Source: Candidatus Marinacidobacterales bacterium
GTDB lineage: Bacteria; Acidobacteriota; Vicinamibacteria; Marinacidobacterales; SMYC01
DNA: 64,000 nucleotides
Direction: 5' to 3'
Assembly (NCBI GenBank): GCA_965224085.1
Contig: CBDCYI010000011.1
Location: 256,001-320,000 of the forward strand
Under the pieces are notes generated by a model. The model was given only the letters and a program-made list of their open reading frames with translations, searched no databases and was not told the origin of the DNA. Positions 30,668-37,269 of this stretch are shown piece by piece. The position numbers and the translations under genes were made by a program. Positions within the stretch are counted from its first letter, which is position 1; each line of letters starts with the position of its first letter.

Positions 30668-32669
30668 CCCATGTTTACCCTTTATGGGCACCCTAACGCT
30701 CGTAAGTGACTGAATTCAAAGGAACGGGGGTTGAATTTGCCCAAAACGTAGAGACAGATATTGTGCTTTTAGCGCCATTAATACGTTGTAATCGTGGACA
30801 ATGATATGTAGTATGCGTGAGGACAGGTTATGTTCTTCCGCATCGTTCGGGCCGCAGGCGGCAAAGGGGTTCAACATGAGTATGTCCGCCTGGTCGAGTC
30901 GTATCGGGAGCACGGCAAGCCGAAGCAACGCGTAGTGTGCAACTTGGGGCGCAAGGATCTCCTAGTTGCCAATCTCGACTCCCTCAATCGGTTGCTTGGG
31001 GCCGGTGAACCGGCCGACACCGAGCGAGCAGCCGAGCAGATCGCGGGGGCAGACGCGTGGGATTGGGGTCCGATGGTGGTGACGGCGACGCTGTGGCGCG
31101 AGCTCGGACTGGAGCAGATTCTCGACCGGCTCGGAGGCCGCGGCAAGCGCGACGGAGTGGCGCTAAGCGAGCGAGCTTTGGTGCTGGTCGCCAACCGGCT
31201 ATGTGCTCCGTCAAGCGAGCACGGTCTGGCGCGCTGGCTCGAGACCGACTTCGTCTGCGACCGGCAGGGGCGGCGGTGGGTGCCGCAGTGGCGCGATGAT
31301 GGGGAGCGGCGAGCGAGTCGCTCCCCGCGGGTTCGCGTGGAGTTTTGCCAACTCAAGCAATGGTACCGAACGCTCGACCAGCTGCATGCCCGCAAAGAAC
31401 AGATCGAGAAAGAGCTGTTTTTGCGCTTGCGGGATCTGTTTTCGCTTGAGGTTGACATGGTGTTTTACGACCTGACGTCGACGTACTTCGAAGGTCAAGG
31501 CCCTCCGGGGCTCGGCGCCCACGGCTACAGTCGCGACCGCAGACCGCGTAACCGGCAAGTGCTTGTCGGTCTGGTGATGGTGGACGGTTGGCCGATCGCC
31601 CACCATGTTTTCGCCGGCAACTGGCGTGACGCGAAAACGGTGCCGCAGGTGCTCAACGATCTCAACGAACGATTCGGTTTGCACCGCGTGGTTTTTGTCG
31701 GCGACCGAGGGATGGTAACGAGCGACAGCCTGGCGGTGGTGCGCTCGCGCAAGCAGGGCTATCTCGTCGGGCTGCAAAGACGACGGCGCGAGGAGGTCTA
31801 TCGTTACATCGAGCGCGCCAGCGGAGAGTGGATCGACTGCCCTGGTGGCATCACGGTGAGCGAAAAAGCCGAGCCACCTAAGACTCGTGTGCAAGAAGTC
31901 CGCTCCGAGCAGTCTGGCGTGCGCATCTTCGTCGTTCACAGCGACGAAAGGCTCGCCTACGAGCGCGGGCAGAGGCTGCGGGCCATGGGACGTGCCCGTG
32001 CGGCATTCGAGGCCCTTGAGCGCCGCGTGCGCGAGGGACGATTGAAAGCCCCCGAGAAAATCGGTGCCGCCGCCGCGCGCATACAGGCACGCCACCACGG
32101 TCACCGTTACTACGACTGGGAGTACAAAAACGCTCGCTTCCGCTTCTTCGAGCACCCGGTCAACCTCAAGCGCGAGCAAGCCTACGAGGGTAAGTACGTT
32201 ATTCAAACCGAGGAGCAAAACCTCTCTCCGGTCGACGCCGTGCGCCTTTACAAGGACCTAAACGAGGTCGAGCGAGCCTTCTCATGCCTTAAGGATGTCA
32301 TTGAGATGCATCCCGTTTACCACCAGACCGATGAGCGTGTGGAGGCACATCTTTTCGTAGCTACGCTGGCCTTCCTTGTGCATCGGGCTCTTGAGAAAAA
32401 GCTCAAGGTCGCCGAACTCGACCTGTCCGCAACCGAGGCACTACAAGCGCTACGCTCGGTCCGGCTCGTCGACTTACAGCTGGGTTCTGGGCGGACCAAG
32501 CGCGTCGTCACGCGCGGCACCGCTCGCGCCAACTCGATCCTGACTGCACTCGGAATCGTTGAACGCGACCCGCCAGCCTTCTCCGAGGAGGTGCTGTCAG
32601 CGTAGAGACAAACCGCGGATCTCAGTCCTTTGTTTATGATGACTTAGAGACCTAAAAGGGAAACATGGG
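30668..32669 (+). mobile_element. Complete IS1634-family element (2002 bp)
   Basis: IRs CCCATGTTTACCCTTTA and TAAAAGGGAAACATGGG; CTAG duplication at 30664-30667 and 32670-32673. Confidence 0.93.
30830..32605 (+). CDS. IS1634-family transposase
   Basis: YVRLVESYR, FYDLTSTYFEG, GDRGM and YKDL.EVERAF..LK motifs. Confidence 0.93.
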   Translation: MFFRIVRAAGGKGVQHEYVRLVESYREHGKPKQRVVCNLGRKDLLVANLDSLNRLLGAGEPADTERAAEQIAGADAWDWGPMVVTATLWRELGLEQILDRLGGRGKRDGVALSERALVLVANRLCAPSSEHGLARWLETDFVCDRQGRRWVPQWRDDGERRASRSPRVRVEFCQLKQWYRTLDQLHARKEQIEKELFLRLRDLFSLEVDMVFYDLTSTYFEGQGPPGLGAHGYSRDRRPRNRQVLVGLVMVDGWPIAHHVFAGNWRDAKTVPQVLNDLNERFGLHRVVFVGDRGMVTSDSLAVVRSRKQGYLVGLQRRRREEVYRYIERASGEWIDCPGGITVSEKAEPPKTRVQEVRSEQSGVRIFVVHSDERLAYERGQRLRAMGRARAAFEALERRVREGRLKAPEKIGAAAARIQARHHGHRYYDWEYKNARFRFFEHPVNLKREQAYEGKYVIQTEEQNLSPVDAVRLYKDLNEVERAFSCLKDVIEMHPVYHQTDERVEAHLFVATLAFLVHRALEKKLKVAELDLSATEALQALRSVRLVDLQLGSGRTKRVVTRGTARANSILTALGIVERDPPAFSEEVLSA

Positions 32670-33354
32670 CTAGGGCTGTGTAGAGCACATTGCTCTTCTC
32701 AACATACTCTTCTGCCTTCAGCGGTGCCAGTCTCAAGCTCTCGTAGCGAAACCTCAGCCGCTCACGCCCCATGAGCGTGATTTGGAACTCCTCCTCTGTC
32801 AGAGCCTGTCCTCCTCCGCGTAGAAACGGCACGATGGGAAGAATCGGTATTTGATGACGCAGCCAGAGCAAAGCGTGGTAGTTGTACATCCTTCGTTCGA
32901 AATCCTGCTCTTGGGCCGCTTGGACTTCGACATGAACGAGAATGAGCTCGGCGTCTCCTTCGAGGGTTTTGATCTCAGCGACGACGTCGGCTTCCCGCCG
33001 TCTGCCCTCTGGAAGGTCCATGAAGAGCTCTTTGTCCAAGAAACGAAGCGTGTCGAAGTCGAGGCGCTTCTCTGCGTCCGGATAGAACATCTGCAAAAAC
33101 TCACGAAATAGGCCTTTCAGAAGATCCTTGAATAGTTGGTCGTGACCCATCTGAGCTGTCTCCCTGTGCACAACAGACGACAAACTCAGGGACAAACCTC
33201 CTTTCCTCCTCCGATTTTCTTCCGGCGACCGGGTGTTAGAATTGCCGACGACGTGATCGGCCAAACGCTTGCCCACTGCAAGATCCTGGAGAAGATTGGC
33301 CAGTGCGGAATGGACTCCCCACGCCGGATCAAGAGAAAACGTTCTTCGTAATAG

Positions 33355-34623
33355 TCATCCGCGATTCGCTTTTTTTGTGGGCCACCGGGAGGGGTCGTAA
33401 AGGGTTCCTTGTCGAAGCATCGCAATGGCGATGGGGAGAATGCGGTCCATGACGCCTCTGAGAGCTCTGGCATGGCTGTGGCCTCTGTCACGAAGCCGGT
33501 CGTAGTGTTCTTTGAAGTGGGGGTCGTGCAAAACGGCAGTGCGTGCCCAATGGTGGAGAGCATTATTGAGGGGCAAAGAGCGAGCTCTCCTCATCAGGAT
33601 CGTTGGTCGCAACTGACCGCGCTTGCCGCTCTTTTTTGTGACAGGAGCAATGCCGCCGAGAGTCCTGAAGGCGTTGAGATTACGGAGCCGAATGGGGTCG
33701 TGGGCATAGCAGAGCACGGAGGCGAGCACGTAAGCACCGACGCCGGGCAAAGAGGCAAGAATGGCAGGGTCGGAGCAATGCTCGTCGGTTAGTGCTTGCA
33801 CGCGCTTGAACCACTTCTCGAGATGCTGGTCGGAGGCACGACGATGTTGTCGAACGAGGAGCAACTGCTGGAGTAGTAGTTGGAGATGCTCGGCGGTAGC
33901 TTGAGTGGTTGCGGTTGCGACCCGGAGAGGTTTTTGTTTGAGGGTATCGAGGATCTTCTCGGGTTTTAGACGTCGGATGCGGTGTTTTTGAGCGAGGGTC
34001 TCAATGGAGTGGCGGCTAAGAGGGTTGGGGCTGGATTCGAAGAAGAGTTTTAGGAGCTCGCAGAAAAAAGCGTCGAGAGCCTTGTCCTTTGGCGCGAGCG
34101 AGACGAGGTGAGGCCAGCAACGAGTAAGGAGTTCTCGGATCTGCGAGCTGAGGGCCACATGGTTTTTGACGAGTTGGTCGCGGGTACTCAGCAACCCGCG
34201 CATAGCGAGGATCTCCGTAGGTGGGAGATGCAAGCGCTGAAAGCGGTGGCCGTCGGTTCTGAGCGAATCGGCGAGAACGAAGGCGTCTCGCCGATCATCC
34301 TTGGCGCCGCTCATAGAATGCCGGTCGCGGAAACGGTCGACCTGCTTGGGATTGATGGAGAAAATGGCGATGCCGTGGTCAAGAAAGAGCTCGACGACGG
34401 CCCCATGAGGTTTTTCGATCGCCACCGCGATGCGCTCGGTATCTTGCGAGGTCTCTTCCAAAAGCCAGTCGATGGTTCCCGATAGTCCTTCGCGGCTATG
34501 GGGGAAGCCTCTCTCCGCCAAGAAGTTACCTTTGGCATCGACCACACTGGCCAAGTGAAGCCATTGACCCAGGTCGATACCGACGAAGAAGTCGTATTTG
34601 AGTTGATTCATGGAAGAACTCAT
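33355..34623 (-). CDS. IS110-family DEDD recombinase/transposase
   Basis: FVGIDLG (D), AIEKP (E), KDDRRDA (D,D), LPGVG and APVTKKSGK (Ser). Start at 34623 or 34611, not 34686. Confidence 0.93.
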   Translation of the reverse strand: MSSSMNQLKYDFFVGIDLGQWLHLASVVDAKGNFLAERGFPHSREGLSGTIDWLLEETSQDTERIAVAIEKPHGAVVELFLDHGIAIFSINPKQVDRFRDRHSMSGAKDDRRDAFVLADSLRTDGHRFQRLHLPPTEILAMRGLLSTRDQLVKNHVALSSQIRELLTRCWPHLVSLAPKDKALDAFFCELLKLFFESSPNPLSRHSIETLAQKHRIRRLKPEKILDTLKQKPLRVATATTQATAEHLQLLLQQLLLVRQHRRASDQHLEKWFKRVQALTDEHCSDPAILASLPGVGAYVLASVLCYAHDPIRLRNLNAFRTLGGIAPVTKKSGKRGQLRPTILMRRARSLPLNNALHHWARTAVLHDPHFKEHYDRLRDRGHSHARALRGVMDRILPIAIAMLRQGTLYDPSRWPTKKANRG

Positions 34624-34635
34624 TTCCGCCAGCGC

Positions 34636-34772
34636 ATGTGATGTTTCATCGGCCCCTGTACTGGCGCTCGAAGCGCAACTCCCCACTGGATGTCCATCAC
34701 AAAAGAATTGCCGGCACGCATGTCCATTCCTGGCGCTAGGAGCGCAGGGCGACGTATGGCGTTGCCGGCAAG
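34636..34772 (-). ncRNA. Predicted IS110 bridge RNA (target-binding loop, then donor-binding loop)
   Basis: Two stem/internal-loop domains, each with a UGCGCU-nnn-AGCGCCAG hairpin. Guides ACGUCGCCC/GGAAUGG match the target flanks; GUGGGGAGU/GUACAGG match the element ends. RNA ends are approximate. Confidence 0.88.
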
Positions 34773-34818
34773 CTGCTGACGAAATCGAAAATAGTCCAAG
34801 CTCATCGTGATATTTGCT

Positions 34819-35235
34819 CTACCATGGCAATCGGAGTTGTCGCGCGATGCCACGAGTTCGTGCTCGGTTTTTTCTCGGTAGTTTCGGGCGAAGCACGTCC
34901 GAGAGTTTTTCTCGAATGTAAAGAACATAAGGCGGGTCTAGATATTGACTTTGCACTTCCTGGAGCACAGGTGAAAAATAACGAAGGGAGCGAATGGGCT
35001 GCAGTGGCTCCTCATGTTCTTGTAGCTCCCTACGAGCGCAACCCAGAAGTAGGGCACACTCGAATTCGTGTAACGGGACTCCTTGGCGGTAGAGCTGCGT
35101 CGCGATGAAGCGGTCGTCGCGCCGTGGCCGCTCAGGTGTGTTCGGAATGGAAAGATAGAGGTCCAAAATCGTCCGGACGTAATTGTTTTCTGTCAGAGCA
35201 TCGCTCGTGAGCGGTTCATTACCCAGCTTCGACAT
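34819..35235 (-). CDS. IS110 cargo ORF-B, hypothetical 138-aa protein
   Basis: ATG overlaps the ORF-A end; GGAGG..AAGG RBS; YVRTILDLY...IRSLRYF...Y. Confidence 0.8.
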   Translation of the reverse strand: MSKLGNEPLTSDALTENNYVRTILDLYLSIPNTPERPRRDDRFIATQLYRQGVPLHEFECALLLGCARRELQEHEEPLQPIRSLRYFSPVLQEVQSQYLDPPYVLYIREKLSDVLRPKLPRKNRARTRGIARQLRLPW

Positions 35236-35632
35236 CCTTTAGCCTCCCGCGTCGGCCGCAGATACAGCATTTGGCATATCTGATACTGTCAATCTTCGTT
35301 TTCATTGAATGAGCCATCGGGCCACTAGCTTGAATTTCACGAACTCCTAGACTGCCAGAATTACTGGGGTGAATGAACCCTTGCTCCGTCACTATTTTCG
35401 CCGCCTGGCGTAGACGATAATTCTGTTGCCGAGCCGCGTGGAGTTTTCGTGAGTTGAAACCTTTCTGGTAATTTCGGTTATTTTCGCGCTGGTTCTCTCG
35501 CCGGGTTTCGTCACGGCAGGTTGGACCGCAGTAGCACTGTCCCTGGTAACATGACTTGCAGATGAAGAAAGGCATCCCACAGCTTTTGTTGCGGCAGAAA
35601 AGCCGGAGAAGAACGACAGGTTTGGTGGCCAT
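35219..35632 (-). CDS. IS110 cargo ORF-A, Cys-rich Zn-finger-like basic protein
   Basis: CRNKSC..F.ICKSC.QGQ.YCGPTC, a basic helix (RQQNYRLRQ) and C-terminal CCICG; start 35632 (or 35729). Confidence 0.8.
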   Translation of the reverse strand: MATKPVVLLRLFCRNKSCGMPFFICKSCYQGQCYCGPTCRDETRRENQRENNRNYQKGFNSRKLHAARQQNYRLRQAAKIVTEQGFIHPSNSGSLGVREIQASGPMAHSMKTKIDSIRYAKCCICGRRGRLKDVEAG

Positions 35633-36098
35633 TCGGAACTCAGCAAAGTGCTGGACGATGGCCGCCCGGATGTGAGAGGCTAGCTTCAACTTGTAGTGGA
35701 GCGCCTCCTCCGGGGGCCATCCAAACATCAGAGCCCCGGTCGTTTGTAGCGGCTGGGGCTCACTATTGTCGCACAGCAGGTTCACCCTCTTCTTGCCGGC
35801 GCGAGACGATCTGACTGACTCGCGCCAAAGGCGCGAGAGGATGCTGGCCTCGCGCCAGAGGCGCGGGATGAGGCCTTGTACACAGACATTTCCTACCGAC
35901 TCTTCCCGCAACACACGCTTTCGCTGCACTGATGCTTCGGCAAGCGTACAGGGTGACGTTTATCTGGCCCAGGACACGAAGCTCGGTCGCAGGGTTGCGC
36001 TCAAGGTTCTCCCTCCCGCGCTGGCGGAAAGCGAAGCGCGCCGGGCTCGCTTCAAACGTGAGGCCAAAGCCCTCGCAGCCCTGAATCATCCGAACATC

Positions 36099-36245
36099 AC
36101 GACACCGTCTCGAGCGCTATCAAAGCGTGCGGGAGCTTGAAGGTCGACGCGGGCGCGGTCCTCACCGCGCATTCGTCGGGATCGCTGACGTAAGGCGTCG
36201 GATCGTCCAACGGCCACACCATCACGATGGGCCTGTCGCGGATTA
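36099..36245 (-). pseudogene. Class D beta-lactamase/transpeptidase-like fragment
   Basis: Manual translation ...[19 protein letters not shown] (SxxK at 36136-36147), abutting the kinase remnant. Confidence 0.6.
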
Positions 36246-36259
36246 GCGGCGCGACCTAC

Positions 36260-36907
36260 TCAGTCCGCGGCGGCGCCGGTGCCGATGGCGCCCAGCGACA
36301 CGAGCCAGATCGAGAAGGGGATCGCTCCTAGCGGAAAGAGGAACGACCACCCCGAGTCTCGGGTGAGGACCGCGATCGGTGGGGCCGCGCCGTACACGAG
36401 ACCGCCGAGAATGCCCACGACGGCCAGGGGACGCGCCAACATCACCCAACGCCATCCGACGCGCCCAGCAACGACGGCAGAGGACCAACATAGCACCGGA
36501 TAGGCCACGACGGAGAGCATCAGGTGCGTGTCGAGAATGGGCGTCGCGCCGCCTGCCGAGAGAGCGGCCACATCCATATCCGCGATCAGATGGAAGAACG
36601 CTTCGACGGACCAGAGCGCGCTCCCTACGACGGCCCACGTCATCGCCCGTCCGGCCCGTCGGCGAAACGCGTCGTCGCGTCTGGCGAGGACGAAGGCGAT
36701 CACGAGGAATACGGCTCCCGCGAGCGTTAGCCAATGGGAGAGCGGCCAAGACGGATCCGAAAGCATTGCCACGAAGTGCGCATCGAAGCCGGCAGTTGGA
36801 TCACCTGGCGGGTGGTTCATGCCGCCCGCCACGAACAGCACCCCCGCCACGACCATCGCAGCCCGCCACGACCACGATTGGCCCGCCTTGGTGCTCGATG
36901 CAGACAT
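36260..36907 (-). CDS. Hypothetical membrane protein
   Basis: 215-aa ORF with about 6 hydrophobic segments and a GG..HP motif. Confidence 0.75.
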   Translation of the reverse strand: MSASSTKAGQSWSWRAAMVVAGVLFVAGGMNHPPGDPTAGFDAHFVAMLSDPSWPLSHWLTLAGAVFLVIAFVLARRDDAFRRRAGRAMTWAVVGSALWSVEAFFHLIADMDVAALSAGGATPILDTHLMLSVVAYPVLCWSSAVVAGRVGWRWVMLARPLAVVGILGGLVYGAAPPIAVLTRDSGWSFLFPLGAIPFSIWLVSLGAIGTGAAAD

Positions 36908-37269
36908 GGTGCGAGGAATCTACCAGATCCTCCTTCTGATGGCCAATGCGTCGTGGAATTGAGGAATAGGAACTTTGACTCCAAGCACCTCGTGTACTGG
37001 CACGAACTGGAGTGCTCGGGAGTACGGAACAGCGGGATGGATGGGGAGAGTCCGTCCTAGGGCCAGCACCCCGGTGTTGTTTTGTGCCGAGGCGGTTCCT
37101 AGGGGGCGCCGGGCGCAGACGGGTATCGCGCTGGGACGGGTGCGGTGTTGTCAGGTCGCTGGTTGTGGCGGAGGAGCTCGGCGTAGATGGGCTATAGCTC
37201 AGCCCTCGCCGATACCGGTTCAGGCGCACCGTGGGGTACGGCGAGGACTTACATTCTGGGTGTCTGGGT

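Follow-up and report, generated by a model that had tools for sequence, protein, structure and literature searches.

A probable bridge RNA and a conserved pair of small genes in an IS110-family element found in kinase glycine-loop codons of a Marinacidobacterales bacterium

In this work we analyzed a stretch of 64,000 nucleotides from Candidatus Marinacidobacterales bacterium (assembly GCA_965224085.1, contig CBDCYI010000011.1, positions 256,001 to 320,000 of the forward strand), referred to here as the window, and found on its minus strand an insertion sequence of the IS110 group that very probably uses a bridge RNA and is active or has recently been active. A first-pass annotation, made from the letters of the DNA, had read an RNA with two loops next to the recombinase gene of this element and proposed that it directs the recombinase to its target and donor sites. 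Comparison among related elements indicates that this two-loop RNA is very probably the functional bridge RNA of the element. The sequence features that characterize the IS110 group are present, namely a recombinase with DEDD and Tnp domains, a two-loop RNA upstream of the recombinase, complementarity to both strands, covariation of the guides, absence of terminal inverted repeats, and scarless insertion at a CC core.

Results

The element, its boundaries and the guides of the RNA

On the minus strand the element is ordered as left end (LE), ORF-A, ORF-B, bridge RNA, recombinase, right end (RE), ORF standing for open reading frame. The predicted RNA is formed by a target-binding loop (TBL) followed by a donor-binding loop (DBL), each of which carries a left and a right guide: LTG and RTG for the target, and LDG and RDG for the donor. 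The halves of the target at either side of the core are denoted LT and RT. The features are the following.

33312-35950, minus strand: whole IS110-family element, 2,639 bp with one copy of the CC core counted, delimited by its junction motifs and by its multiple copies
35959-35953, minus strand: left target half ACGTCAC, followed by the core CC at 35952-35951; it matches LTG at 8/9 positions
35946-35950, minus strand: right-donor half TGTAC, with which the left end opens; RDG is the reverse complement of CC+TGTAC
33322-33314, minus strand: left-donor half GTGGGGAGT, followed by the core CC at 33313-33312; right end of the element
33307-33311, minus strand: right target half ATTCC, read from the junction sequence
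34638-34771, minus strand: predicted bridge RNA core, 134 nt, with the TBL at 34771-34708, a linker, and the DBL at 34700-34638
34747-34755, minus strand: LTG ACGUCGCCC, 7 nt plus the core, equal to the consensus LT plus core of the insertion sites in the same genome
34724-34730, minus strand: RTG GGAAUGG, core plus 5 nt, exact reverse complement of CC+ATTCC (7/7)
34678-34686, minus strand: LDG GUGGGGAGU, 9 nt, stopping just ahead of the core; it matches the left donor at 9/9 positions
34655-34661, minus strand: RDG GUACAGG, core plus 5 nt, exact reverse complement of CC+TGTAC (7/7)

The genome carries four full-length copies of the element with 99.8-100% identity, all of them at different sites, and when the genome copies are aligned the identity ceases at the CC core; the boundaries are thus supported independently of the guides. 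In the window, the left junction reads ACGTCAC-CC-TGTAC (35959-35946) and the right junction GTGGGGAGT-CC-ATTCC (33322-33307); CC is present at both junctions, and when the flanks are rejoined with a single CC a continuous kinase reading frame is obtained on the plus strand. The RNA is separated from the recombinase gene by 14 nt, and the recombinase stop codon from the right end by 42 nt. No terminal inverted repeat was found in the element; the best pair near the ends (14 nt, 93%) does not reach the terminus on the right and is close to the chance level.

Besides the full-length copies, which belong to what we call the A subfamily, the genome has three deleted or truncated A-type copies that retain the RNA and one right-end fragment, so that the identical A-type RNA is present seven times. 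A diverged B subfamily (85-86% identity) is represented by a full copy, two copies truncated at the 5' side and an old left fragment. Of the three defective A-type copies with an identical RNA, G000 C9:115777-118256 has lost 174 bp of ORF-A/B, C5:333081-334703 about 1 kb of the recombinase, and C5:1945125-1946508 all that follows the RNA; these copies might be mobilized in trans. The locus C9:747934-748786 was considered as a progenitor of the ORF-A/B module and rejected, given that it is a decayed and truncated B-like copy inserted in another kinase gene.

On re-reading, the minus-strand reading of the RNA and the coordinates of the four guides reported in the first-pass annotation were exact; the interval that it gave, 34636-34772, places the RNA correctly and is slightly too wide, because the printed string corresponds to 34771-34638, 1-2 nt narrower at each end. 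The matches that it claimed for the guides (LTG 8/9, RTG 7/7, LDG 9/9 and RDG 7/7) were recovered and are unique to copies of the element: a full set of four, correctly ordered and spaced, turns up at a single place in both strands of the 64-kb window, and at seven places in the 6.87-Mb genome, every one of which is an A-type copy. The sole difference between LTG and LT plus core is a G that faces a T of the bottom strand. The CC core, the 7-nt right guides (core plus 5 nt) and the TBL-then-DBL order are likewise as described, and the distance from the RNA to the left end, announced as about 1.2 kb, measures 1,179 nt. It had also been observed that LDG ends short of the core; indeed U-G and not C-C follows it, and a U occupies the position after LDG in most members of the clade. 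In the relatives L068 and L069 the LDG has one additional C that could pair with the first position of the core, and in L065, L074, L075 and L084 there is an additional U at the corresponding position; therefore, the clade admits more than one register of LDG with respect to the core.

Conservation and covariation of the RNA

Relatives were collected by a metagenome search with the recombinase (using the reading frame 33355-34626, which includes one extra codon); the best 80 of 162 relatives were taken, 40 of which show 60-94% protein identity. The RNA region is present in 40/40 of these, with 84-96% nucleotide identity, so that the RNA scaffold is better conserved than the recombinase protein. 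The RNA alignment comprised 34 sequences: the window, the B subfamily, 31 of the 40 metagenomic loci, and L020, which comes from a different genus within the same family. L085, whose contig starts inside the RNA, was left out, as were L054, L055, L058, L059, L064, L071, L078 and L084, which share their guide set with a locus that was kept.

A model of five helices (32 base pairs) was evaluated on these 34 sequences, and 98.5% of the cells form standard pairs. Changes on both sides of a pair were found in 7/32 pairs, as compared with a mean of 2.6 in shuffled alignments, 0/500 of which reached 7, and with 0-2 when the partners were slid. The outer stem of each module (TBL and DBL) contains compensatory pairs, and so do the two inner hairpins. 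Unaided, RNAalifold recovered the outer stems and the TBL hairpin, and paired the interior of the DBL differently. A candidate basal helix of 4 bp, formed by CAGC (34778-34775) and GCUG (34633-34630), is 91.9% paired and shows no covariation. The first-pass annotation had suggested that the region be folded and examined for covariation across homologous elements; covariation was clearly found, the fold of the single sequence is marginal (z = -1.86), and the structure is considered supported because of the former, the latter being weak by itself.

Covariation of the guides with the element ends and the flanks

The ends of the relatives were located by means of anchors that permit either guide variant. 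Few positions of the loops are variable, i.e. LTG 3 and 6 and RTG 3, and in a few members RDG 4 and LDG 6. At the donor side, five loci have RDG GUAUAGG, and the left end reads CC-TATAC in the 4/4 of them whose left end was located; the other 26/26 left ends combine RDG GUACAGG with CC-TGTAC. Similarly, an LDG ending in GGGAAGU is accompanied by a right end ...GGGAAGT-CC in the 2/2 loci with a located right end.

At the target side, 42 RT and 39 LT junctions were analyzed (31 and 30 of them, respectively, from metagenomes, and the others from the window's genome and L020). RT is fully Watson-Crick paired to its own RTG at 24/42 junctions, or at 28/42 if wobble is accepted, and 0/20,000 permutations gave a number as high. 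For LT, 222/273 positions are paired, as compared with a permutation mean of 208.4 (p = 0.0003); with wobble counted the figure is 242/273 (0/20,000 permutations). Within the window's genome, the A subfamily (RTG GGAAUGG) has RT ATTCC at 3/7 right junctions and ATACC at 0/7, the B subfamily (RTG GGUAUGG) has RT ATACC at 2/3 copies, and in L020 RTG GGGAUGG is found with RT ATCCC. The consensus of the insertion sites of this genome equals the sequence predicted from LTG and RTG. Outside of the guides, no covariation with the flanks was detected 5' of LTG or 5' of RTG (p = 0.51 and 0.95); an invariant A located two positions 5' of LTG is always opposite a T, and neither side varies. Empty sites resembling the target in the genome (0 exact, 3 with one mismatch, and 107 with two or fewer) fall within the range given by shuffled patterns (18-161), so site counts alone are uninformative. 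The first-pass annotation had staked its proposal on guides that change together with the flanks in homologues, and this expectation withstood the test: agreement is perfect for the donor, and significant for RT and for the LT positions. Its word "programmable" goes further, as an extrapolation from this natural variation of the guides.

Several observations weigh against a functional bridge RNA. The single-sequence fold was equalled by 10/200 shuffles, no conservation between subgroups is seen in the 20 nt that precede the RNA, an Rfam scan of 33000-37000 gave no match at E ≤ 1, and a scan of the linear element for sigma-70-like promoters gave 0 sites. In IS621, the element for which bridge RNAs have been described, the core takes part in all four pairings according to Durrant 2024 (PMC11208160), unlike the LDG of the window, which does not include it. 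Regarding the target, 18/42 RT sites carry a mismatch, fully paired LT sites are not in excess (3/39 by Watson-Crick pairing, p = 0.66; 17/39 with wobble, p = 0.063), and two insertions in the window's genome match the guides poorly (LT TAGTAGC with RT ATATC, and LT CCGAAGC). In addition, junctions of one element family are not always independent, and metagenome contigs that span repeats may be chimeric; chimeric contigs would blur the relationship between guides and flanks and not create it. As judged from the junctions, target recognition is real yet mismatch-tolerant, which agrees with the "zero to two mismatches" reported for natural IS110 elements in the same paper (Durrant 2024, PMC11208160).

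Insertion in the glycine loop of kinase genes

The reverse complement of LT-core-RT reads GGN ATG GGN GAN GT, which encodes G-M-G-D/E-V, the glycine loop of Ser/Thr kinases. In agreement with this, the flank of L020 matches Pkinase (E = 2.6e-42) from profile position 13 onwards, and the flank of the window gives a weak match at the same profile positions (E = 1e-4, below the cut-off). All the metagenomic right flanks of sufficient length (30/30) have a ...Y.IL..LG.GGM ending, the left flanks encode G[EV]VY...VAIK in 24/25 cases, with a stop codon in the 25th, and 6/9 insertions in the window's genome, read by eye, lie in such glycine-loop motifs. The clade thus inserts repeatedly into Ser/Thr-kinase glycine-loop codons, where each member open to checking was located, the target being the antisense strand. 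The three variable positions of the target guides coincide with the third-codon positions of Gly, Gly and Asp/Glu; at LTG position 3, a U can pair with A or G (Glu codons) and a G with C or U (Asp codons). Since kinases form a large paralogous gene family, many near-cognate sites are available. No paper on the targeting of a kinase motif by IS110 elements was found in our literature search, which is not proof of absence.

The kinase remnant of the window (35953-36140, plus-strand reading) ends about 60 aa beyond the loop, at 36140, and this kinase was therefore broken a second time.

A different kind of site is occupied by more distant recombinases of the same order (30-41% identity; G034, G031 and G033, and L022, L027 and L028 with their copies), which are multi-copy. 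Where the ends were aligned (G019, G031, G033, G034 and G035), these relatives occupy GC-rich palindromic repeats (GCCCGCCGCAGGCGGGC-like). Palindromic repeats are the classic insertion sites of IS110 elements, and the relatives of the G034/G031/G033 type conform to this habit, in contrast with the coding motif used by the window's clade. IS621 itself reportedly targets a repetitive extragenic palindromic (REP)-type repeat.

The recombinase

The protein next to the RNA has the domains expected for an IS110 recombinase, i.e. a DEDD (RuvC-like) N-terminal domain and a C-terminal transposase (Tnp) domain.

33355-34623, minus strand: IS110-family recombinase, 422 aa, ATG at 34623 (MSSSMNQLKYDFFVGIDLG...), identified by Pfam and NCBIfam

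The Pfam matches are DEDD_Tnp_IS110 (PF01548; 2.8e-31) and Transposase_20 (PF02371; 1.1e-11), and the NCBIfam model NF033542, "IS110 family RNA-guided transposase", scores 162.8 bits with a cut-off of 140. The similarity to the recombinases of IS621 (8wt6; E = 2e-7) and ISCro4 (9t56; E = 2e-6) is distant and confined to the C-terminal domain. Between the A and B subfamilies the ratio of nonsynonymous to synonymous substitution rates (dN/dS) of the recombinase is 0.22.

ORF-A and ORF-B

Two reading frames are placed between the left end and the RNA.

35219-35728, minus strand: ORF-A, 169 aa, Cys-rich, ATG at 35728, with the frame open to a GTG at 35929
34819-35235, minus strand: ORF-B, 138 aa, with an invariant IRSLRYF, its start overlapping the ORF-A stop

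ORF-A has invariant cysteines at positions C45, C50, C57, C60, C67 and C71 (C-x4-C-x6-C-x2-C-x6-C-x3-C) and at C154 and C157 (C-x2-C), and two long basic helices follow the Cys region; ORF-B is modelled as a five-helix bundle (predicted local distance difference test score, pLDDT, 77.5). For both proteins, searches against Pfam and NCBIfam identified no family, lenient thresholds giving only noise; comparison of the models with the PDB at E ≤ 0.001 gave no fold match (best values, 1.1 for ORF-B and 6.4 for ORF-A), and in the Atlas only unnamed clusters were matched. The 72 homologues of ORF-B that were detected are all without a family name. Prediction of a complex of ORF-A and ORF-B gave a score of 0.00, which is informative neither way.

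Among the 40 close metagenomic relatives, ORF-A is present in 34, and in the six where it was missed the contig offers under 700 nt on the upstream side of the RNA; ORF-B is also present in 34, with a true absence from five loci and a cut contig in the sixth case. In the five loci without ORF-B the left end is 605-616 nt from the RNA, and L020 likewise carries ORF-A only. Both proteins have diverged to about 30-40% identity with order and position retained. The dN/dS of ORF-B between the A and B subfamilies is 0.30; ORF-A is under weaker constraint, with frameshifts both in the B subfamily and in two of the A copies. The relatives at 38-44% recombinase identity have ORF-A/ORF-B in 0/40 cases, and 35/40 show partial similarity to the donor-loop scaffold.

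Outside of IS110 elements, homologues of both genes are found with istA and istB, the genes of IS21-type elements, in Acidobacteria, Gemmatimonadota and Acidimicrobiia. L014 and L018 contain a tight array ORF-A-istA-istB-ORF-B, and L012 has istA-istB-ORF-B. In a survey of 401 genomes of the window's phylum, ORF-B was detected in 23, often with up to 10 copies (both figures take in the window's own genome, and the 23 also include G103); it adjoins an IstB-like gene in 24/27 loci examined and an IS110 recombinase in 0/27. The first-pass annotation had called the two genes cargo; that label is disfavoured, as each is kept in 34/40 relatives and they behave as a conserved accessory pair that co-evolves with the element. 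Given that they are conserved in the IS110 clade and tied to IS21-type istA-istB elsewhere, we read ORF-A and ORF-B, on sequence grounds, as a probable accessory module common to two unrelated types of transposon. Our literature search found no paper on conserved accessory proteins in IS110 elements, which does not prove that none exists.

In L013, L016 and L017, the ORF-B domain with its IRSLRYF motif forms the C-terminal part of proteins of 250-375 aa, whose N-terminal part resembles, by eye, a winged-helix DNA-binding domain; no transposase was found beside these fusions in the stretch read.

A proposed mechanism and a possible circle-junction promoter

By analogy with IS621 (Durrant 2024), the element would be excised as a circle in which RE is joined to LE at the CC core. 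The 3' module of the RNA, the DBL, would then pair through LDG and RDG with the two strands of the joined ends GTGGGGAGT-CC-TGTAC, and the 5' module, the TBL, would pair through LTG and RTG with the two strands of the target ACGTCGC-CC-ATTCC in a kinase gene, so that the DEDD/serine recombinase could exchange strands at the common CC core. The production of the RNA, its binding by the recombinase, and the chemistry of the reaction are presumed to be those of IS621. Such a circle could also bring together a promoter, for which the right end contributes a possible box.

33328-33333, minus strand: -35-like box TTGATC (TTGAC[CA] in relatives), in the right end, 15 nt before the end of the core

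A -10-like sequence, TACGCT or TACTCT, is found 17 nt on from the TTGAC[CA] of the right end, across the circle junction (35950-35943 in the window), and this -35/-10-like arrangement across the predicted junction is present in 20 distinct relatives and in the window. If the TTGATC of the right end is indeed a promoter box, a promoter at the circle junction would drive transcription first of ORF-A and ORF-B, then of the RNA and finally of the recombinase. The element contains four terminator-like sites, no more than shuffled sequences. In metagenomes labelled as RNA (X15-X17 and X19), contigs of relatives partly cover the recombinase, the RNA and the ORFs; one of 288 nt (X17) is identical to 34874-35161, within ORF-B, and one of 333 nt (X19) spans 34459-34769 with 43 differences. 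These matches were not counted as expression, since they are assembled contigs and DNA may be present in the libraries, and the parts that they leave uncovered carry no meaning.

Discussion

Alternative explanations

The structured stretch ends 14 nt ahead of the recombinase start codon, no promoter of its own was found for it, and the contigs from RNA libraries cannot show a transcript; these facts would suit a mere 5' leader of the recombinase mRNA, in which case the matches at the ends of the element would be subterminal sites bound by a protein at the DNA level. We consider this very unlikely: both strands of target and donor are matched by guides located in the internal loops of two stem modules that covary, RTG and LTG change together with the flanks, a dependence on the neighbouring target DNA that would not be expected of a leader, and the IS110 family is known to use such RNAs (Durrant 2024, PMC11208160). 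Another arrangement, with a canonical IS110 of about 1.5 kb nested in an unrelated remnant that carries ORF-A and ORF-B and with the 2.6-kb boundaries being wrong, is suggested by the distant relatives, which are canonical in size and have a similar donor-loop scaffold just upstream of the recombinase (partial in 35/40). It is hardly credible, given that the identity of the four full copies extends to CC-TGTAC upstream of ORF-A, that RDG matches that left end and no site near the RNA, that the flanks join into a kinase frame, and that in 30 metagenomic loci the same left end is found at 605-1,155 nt from the RNA, on its upstream side.

The role of ORF-A and ORF-B is less clear-cut. That they are ordinary passengers, which hitch-hiked from an IS21-type element and have no role in IS110 transposition, is a serious possibility, if short of an even chance: cargo-bearing IS110 loci are common according to a recent preprint (Hu et al. 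2026, bioRxiv 10.64898/2026.08.14.744561), the ORF-A of the B subfamily is frameshifted, as is that of two A copies without other damage, five relatives and L020 have cognate junctions without ORF-B, and the relatives at 38-44% identity have neither gene (0/40). On the other hand, synteny has been held in spite of the divergence of both proteins to 30-40% identity, the dN/dS of ORF-B (0.30) is near that of the recombinase (0.22), and the two genes also accompany a second transposase system, unrelated to the first (ORF-A-istA-istB-ORF-B; IstB-like neighbour in 24/27 loci), an association that suits genes that serve the element better than cargo that benefits the host. Tentatively, and with the odds against it, ORF-A and ORF-B could act as protein cofactors in bridge recombination guided by RNA, having been recruited by IS21-type elements and by this IS110 clade; as such, they could control the formation of the circle, directionality, or access to transcribed kinase genes.

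Comparison with known systems

IS21-type and IS110 elements reportedly both act via abutted-end or circle junctions. The IS21-type loci that carry the gene pair (L012, L014, L018 and L130-L158) resemble the window's element in having ORF-A before istA and ORF-B right after istB; in contrast, their machinery is unrelated (the DDE transposase IstA and the ATPase IstB), and neither a bridge RNA nor an IS110 recombinase was found in the IS21-type ORF-B loci examined (0/27). The element of the window does not belong to IS21, since its only reading frames are ORF-A, ORF-B and the IS110 recombinase.

In IS1111-group elements the RNA reportedly lies downstream of their transposase, whereas here it is upstream. 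This position, the 42 nt from the stop codon to the end and the absence of repeats place the element outside of that group. Both systems share an RNA-guided DEDD transposase that recognizes target and donor, the seekRNA of the IS1111 group in the other case, and IS1111 elements have subterminal inverted repeats (Siddiquee 2024, PMC11187229), whereas no terminal or subterminal repeat beyond chance was found here.

With IS621, as described in Durrant 2024 (PMC11208160; 8wt6), the window's element has in common a recombinase with DEDD and Tnp domains, an RNA placed upstream of the recombinase with the target-binding loop 5' and then the donor-binding loop, a 2-nt core common to target and donor, LTG and LDG in the sense of the left halves with RTG and RDG as reverse complements of the right halves, and, in the right end, a -35-like box that could belong to a promoter formed at the circle junction. 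The differences are also evident: the recombinase is about 100 aa longer and only distantly related, the core is CC and not CT, and the RTG has 7 nt, whereas that of wild-type IS621 pairs 4 nt, RTGs longer than the latter being known in orthologues. The RNA lies 1,179 nt from the left end with two conserved protein genes in between, whereas the RNA of IS621 starts at the junction promoter and occupies about 177 bp of LE. In consequence the narrow architecture of IS621, with the RNA at the left end and the core in all four pairings, is not that of the window.

The "expanded" IS110 elements of Hu, Xie, Yang and Rubin (the 2026 preprint) are similar in exceeding 2 kb, in carrying extra coding sequence within boundaries defined by the guides, and in lacking a second transposase. 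The preprint describes a continuum of sizes and a variable, plasmid-like adaptive cargo in which antimicrobial resistance is most enriched; here, in contrast, there is one fixed pair of small genes whose order and position are conserved across the clade, and the mobility of the whole unit is shown by four near-identical copies. Word searches of the preprint's main text gave nothing that points to the window's clade. Knowledge of bridge RNAs and IS110 recombinases goes back to 2024, and IS110 loci with extra genes were described in the 2026 preprint (Hu et al.); what is new here is a conserved three-gene IS110 architecture with IS21-type accessory genes and a coding-motif target.

Bridge recombinases are in development as programmable tools for genome writing and are described as formed by a recombinase and an RNA only. 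The clade analyzed here would provide a natural system with a CC core, whose natural guide variants may reveal positions that can be re-programmed and whose RNA appears to function, or is at any rate maintained, at a distance of over 1 kb from the circle junction. The two small proteins that it shares with IS21-type elements are candidate accessory factors in bridge recombination; if they are cofactors, bridge recombinases would not always be two-component systems. The clade would also be a clear case of RNA-guided homing to a conserved coding motif, with wobble and guide variation at third-codon (synonymous) positions, and homing to kinase motifs is relevant to the way in which IS110 elements locate targets present in many copies, and to the loss of kinase genes in these bacteria.

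Other features of the region

The neighbourhood of the element is rich in mobile DNA. Two genes directly adjoin it, one encoding a DDE_Tnp_1 transposase (591 aa; 30830-32605, plus strand) and the other a Transposase_31/YhgA-like protein (210 aa; 32644-33276, minus strand). Inside the left end, upstream of the ATG of ORF-A, there are two GC-rich hairpins of the form CGCGCC-TYT-GGCGCG (35865-35851 and 35837-35819, minus strand); this hairpin is present as a single copy in the B subfamily, and it has an exact complement of 13 nt within the recombinase gene (34086-34098).

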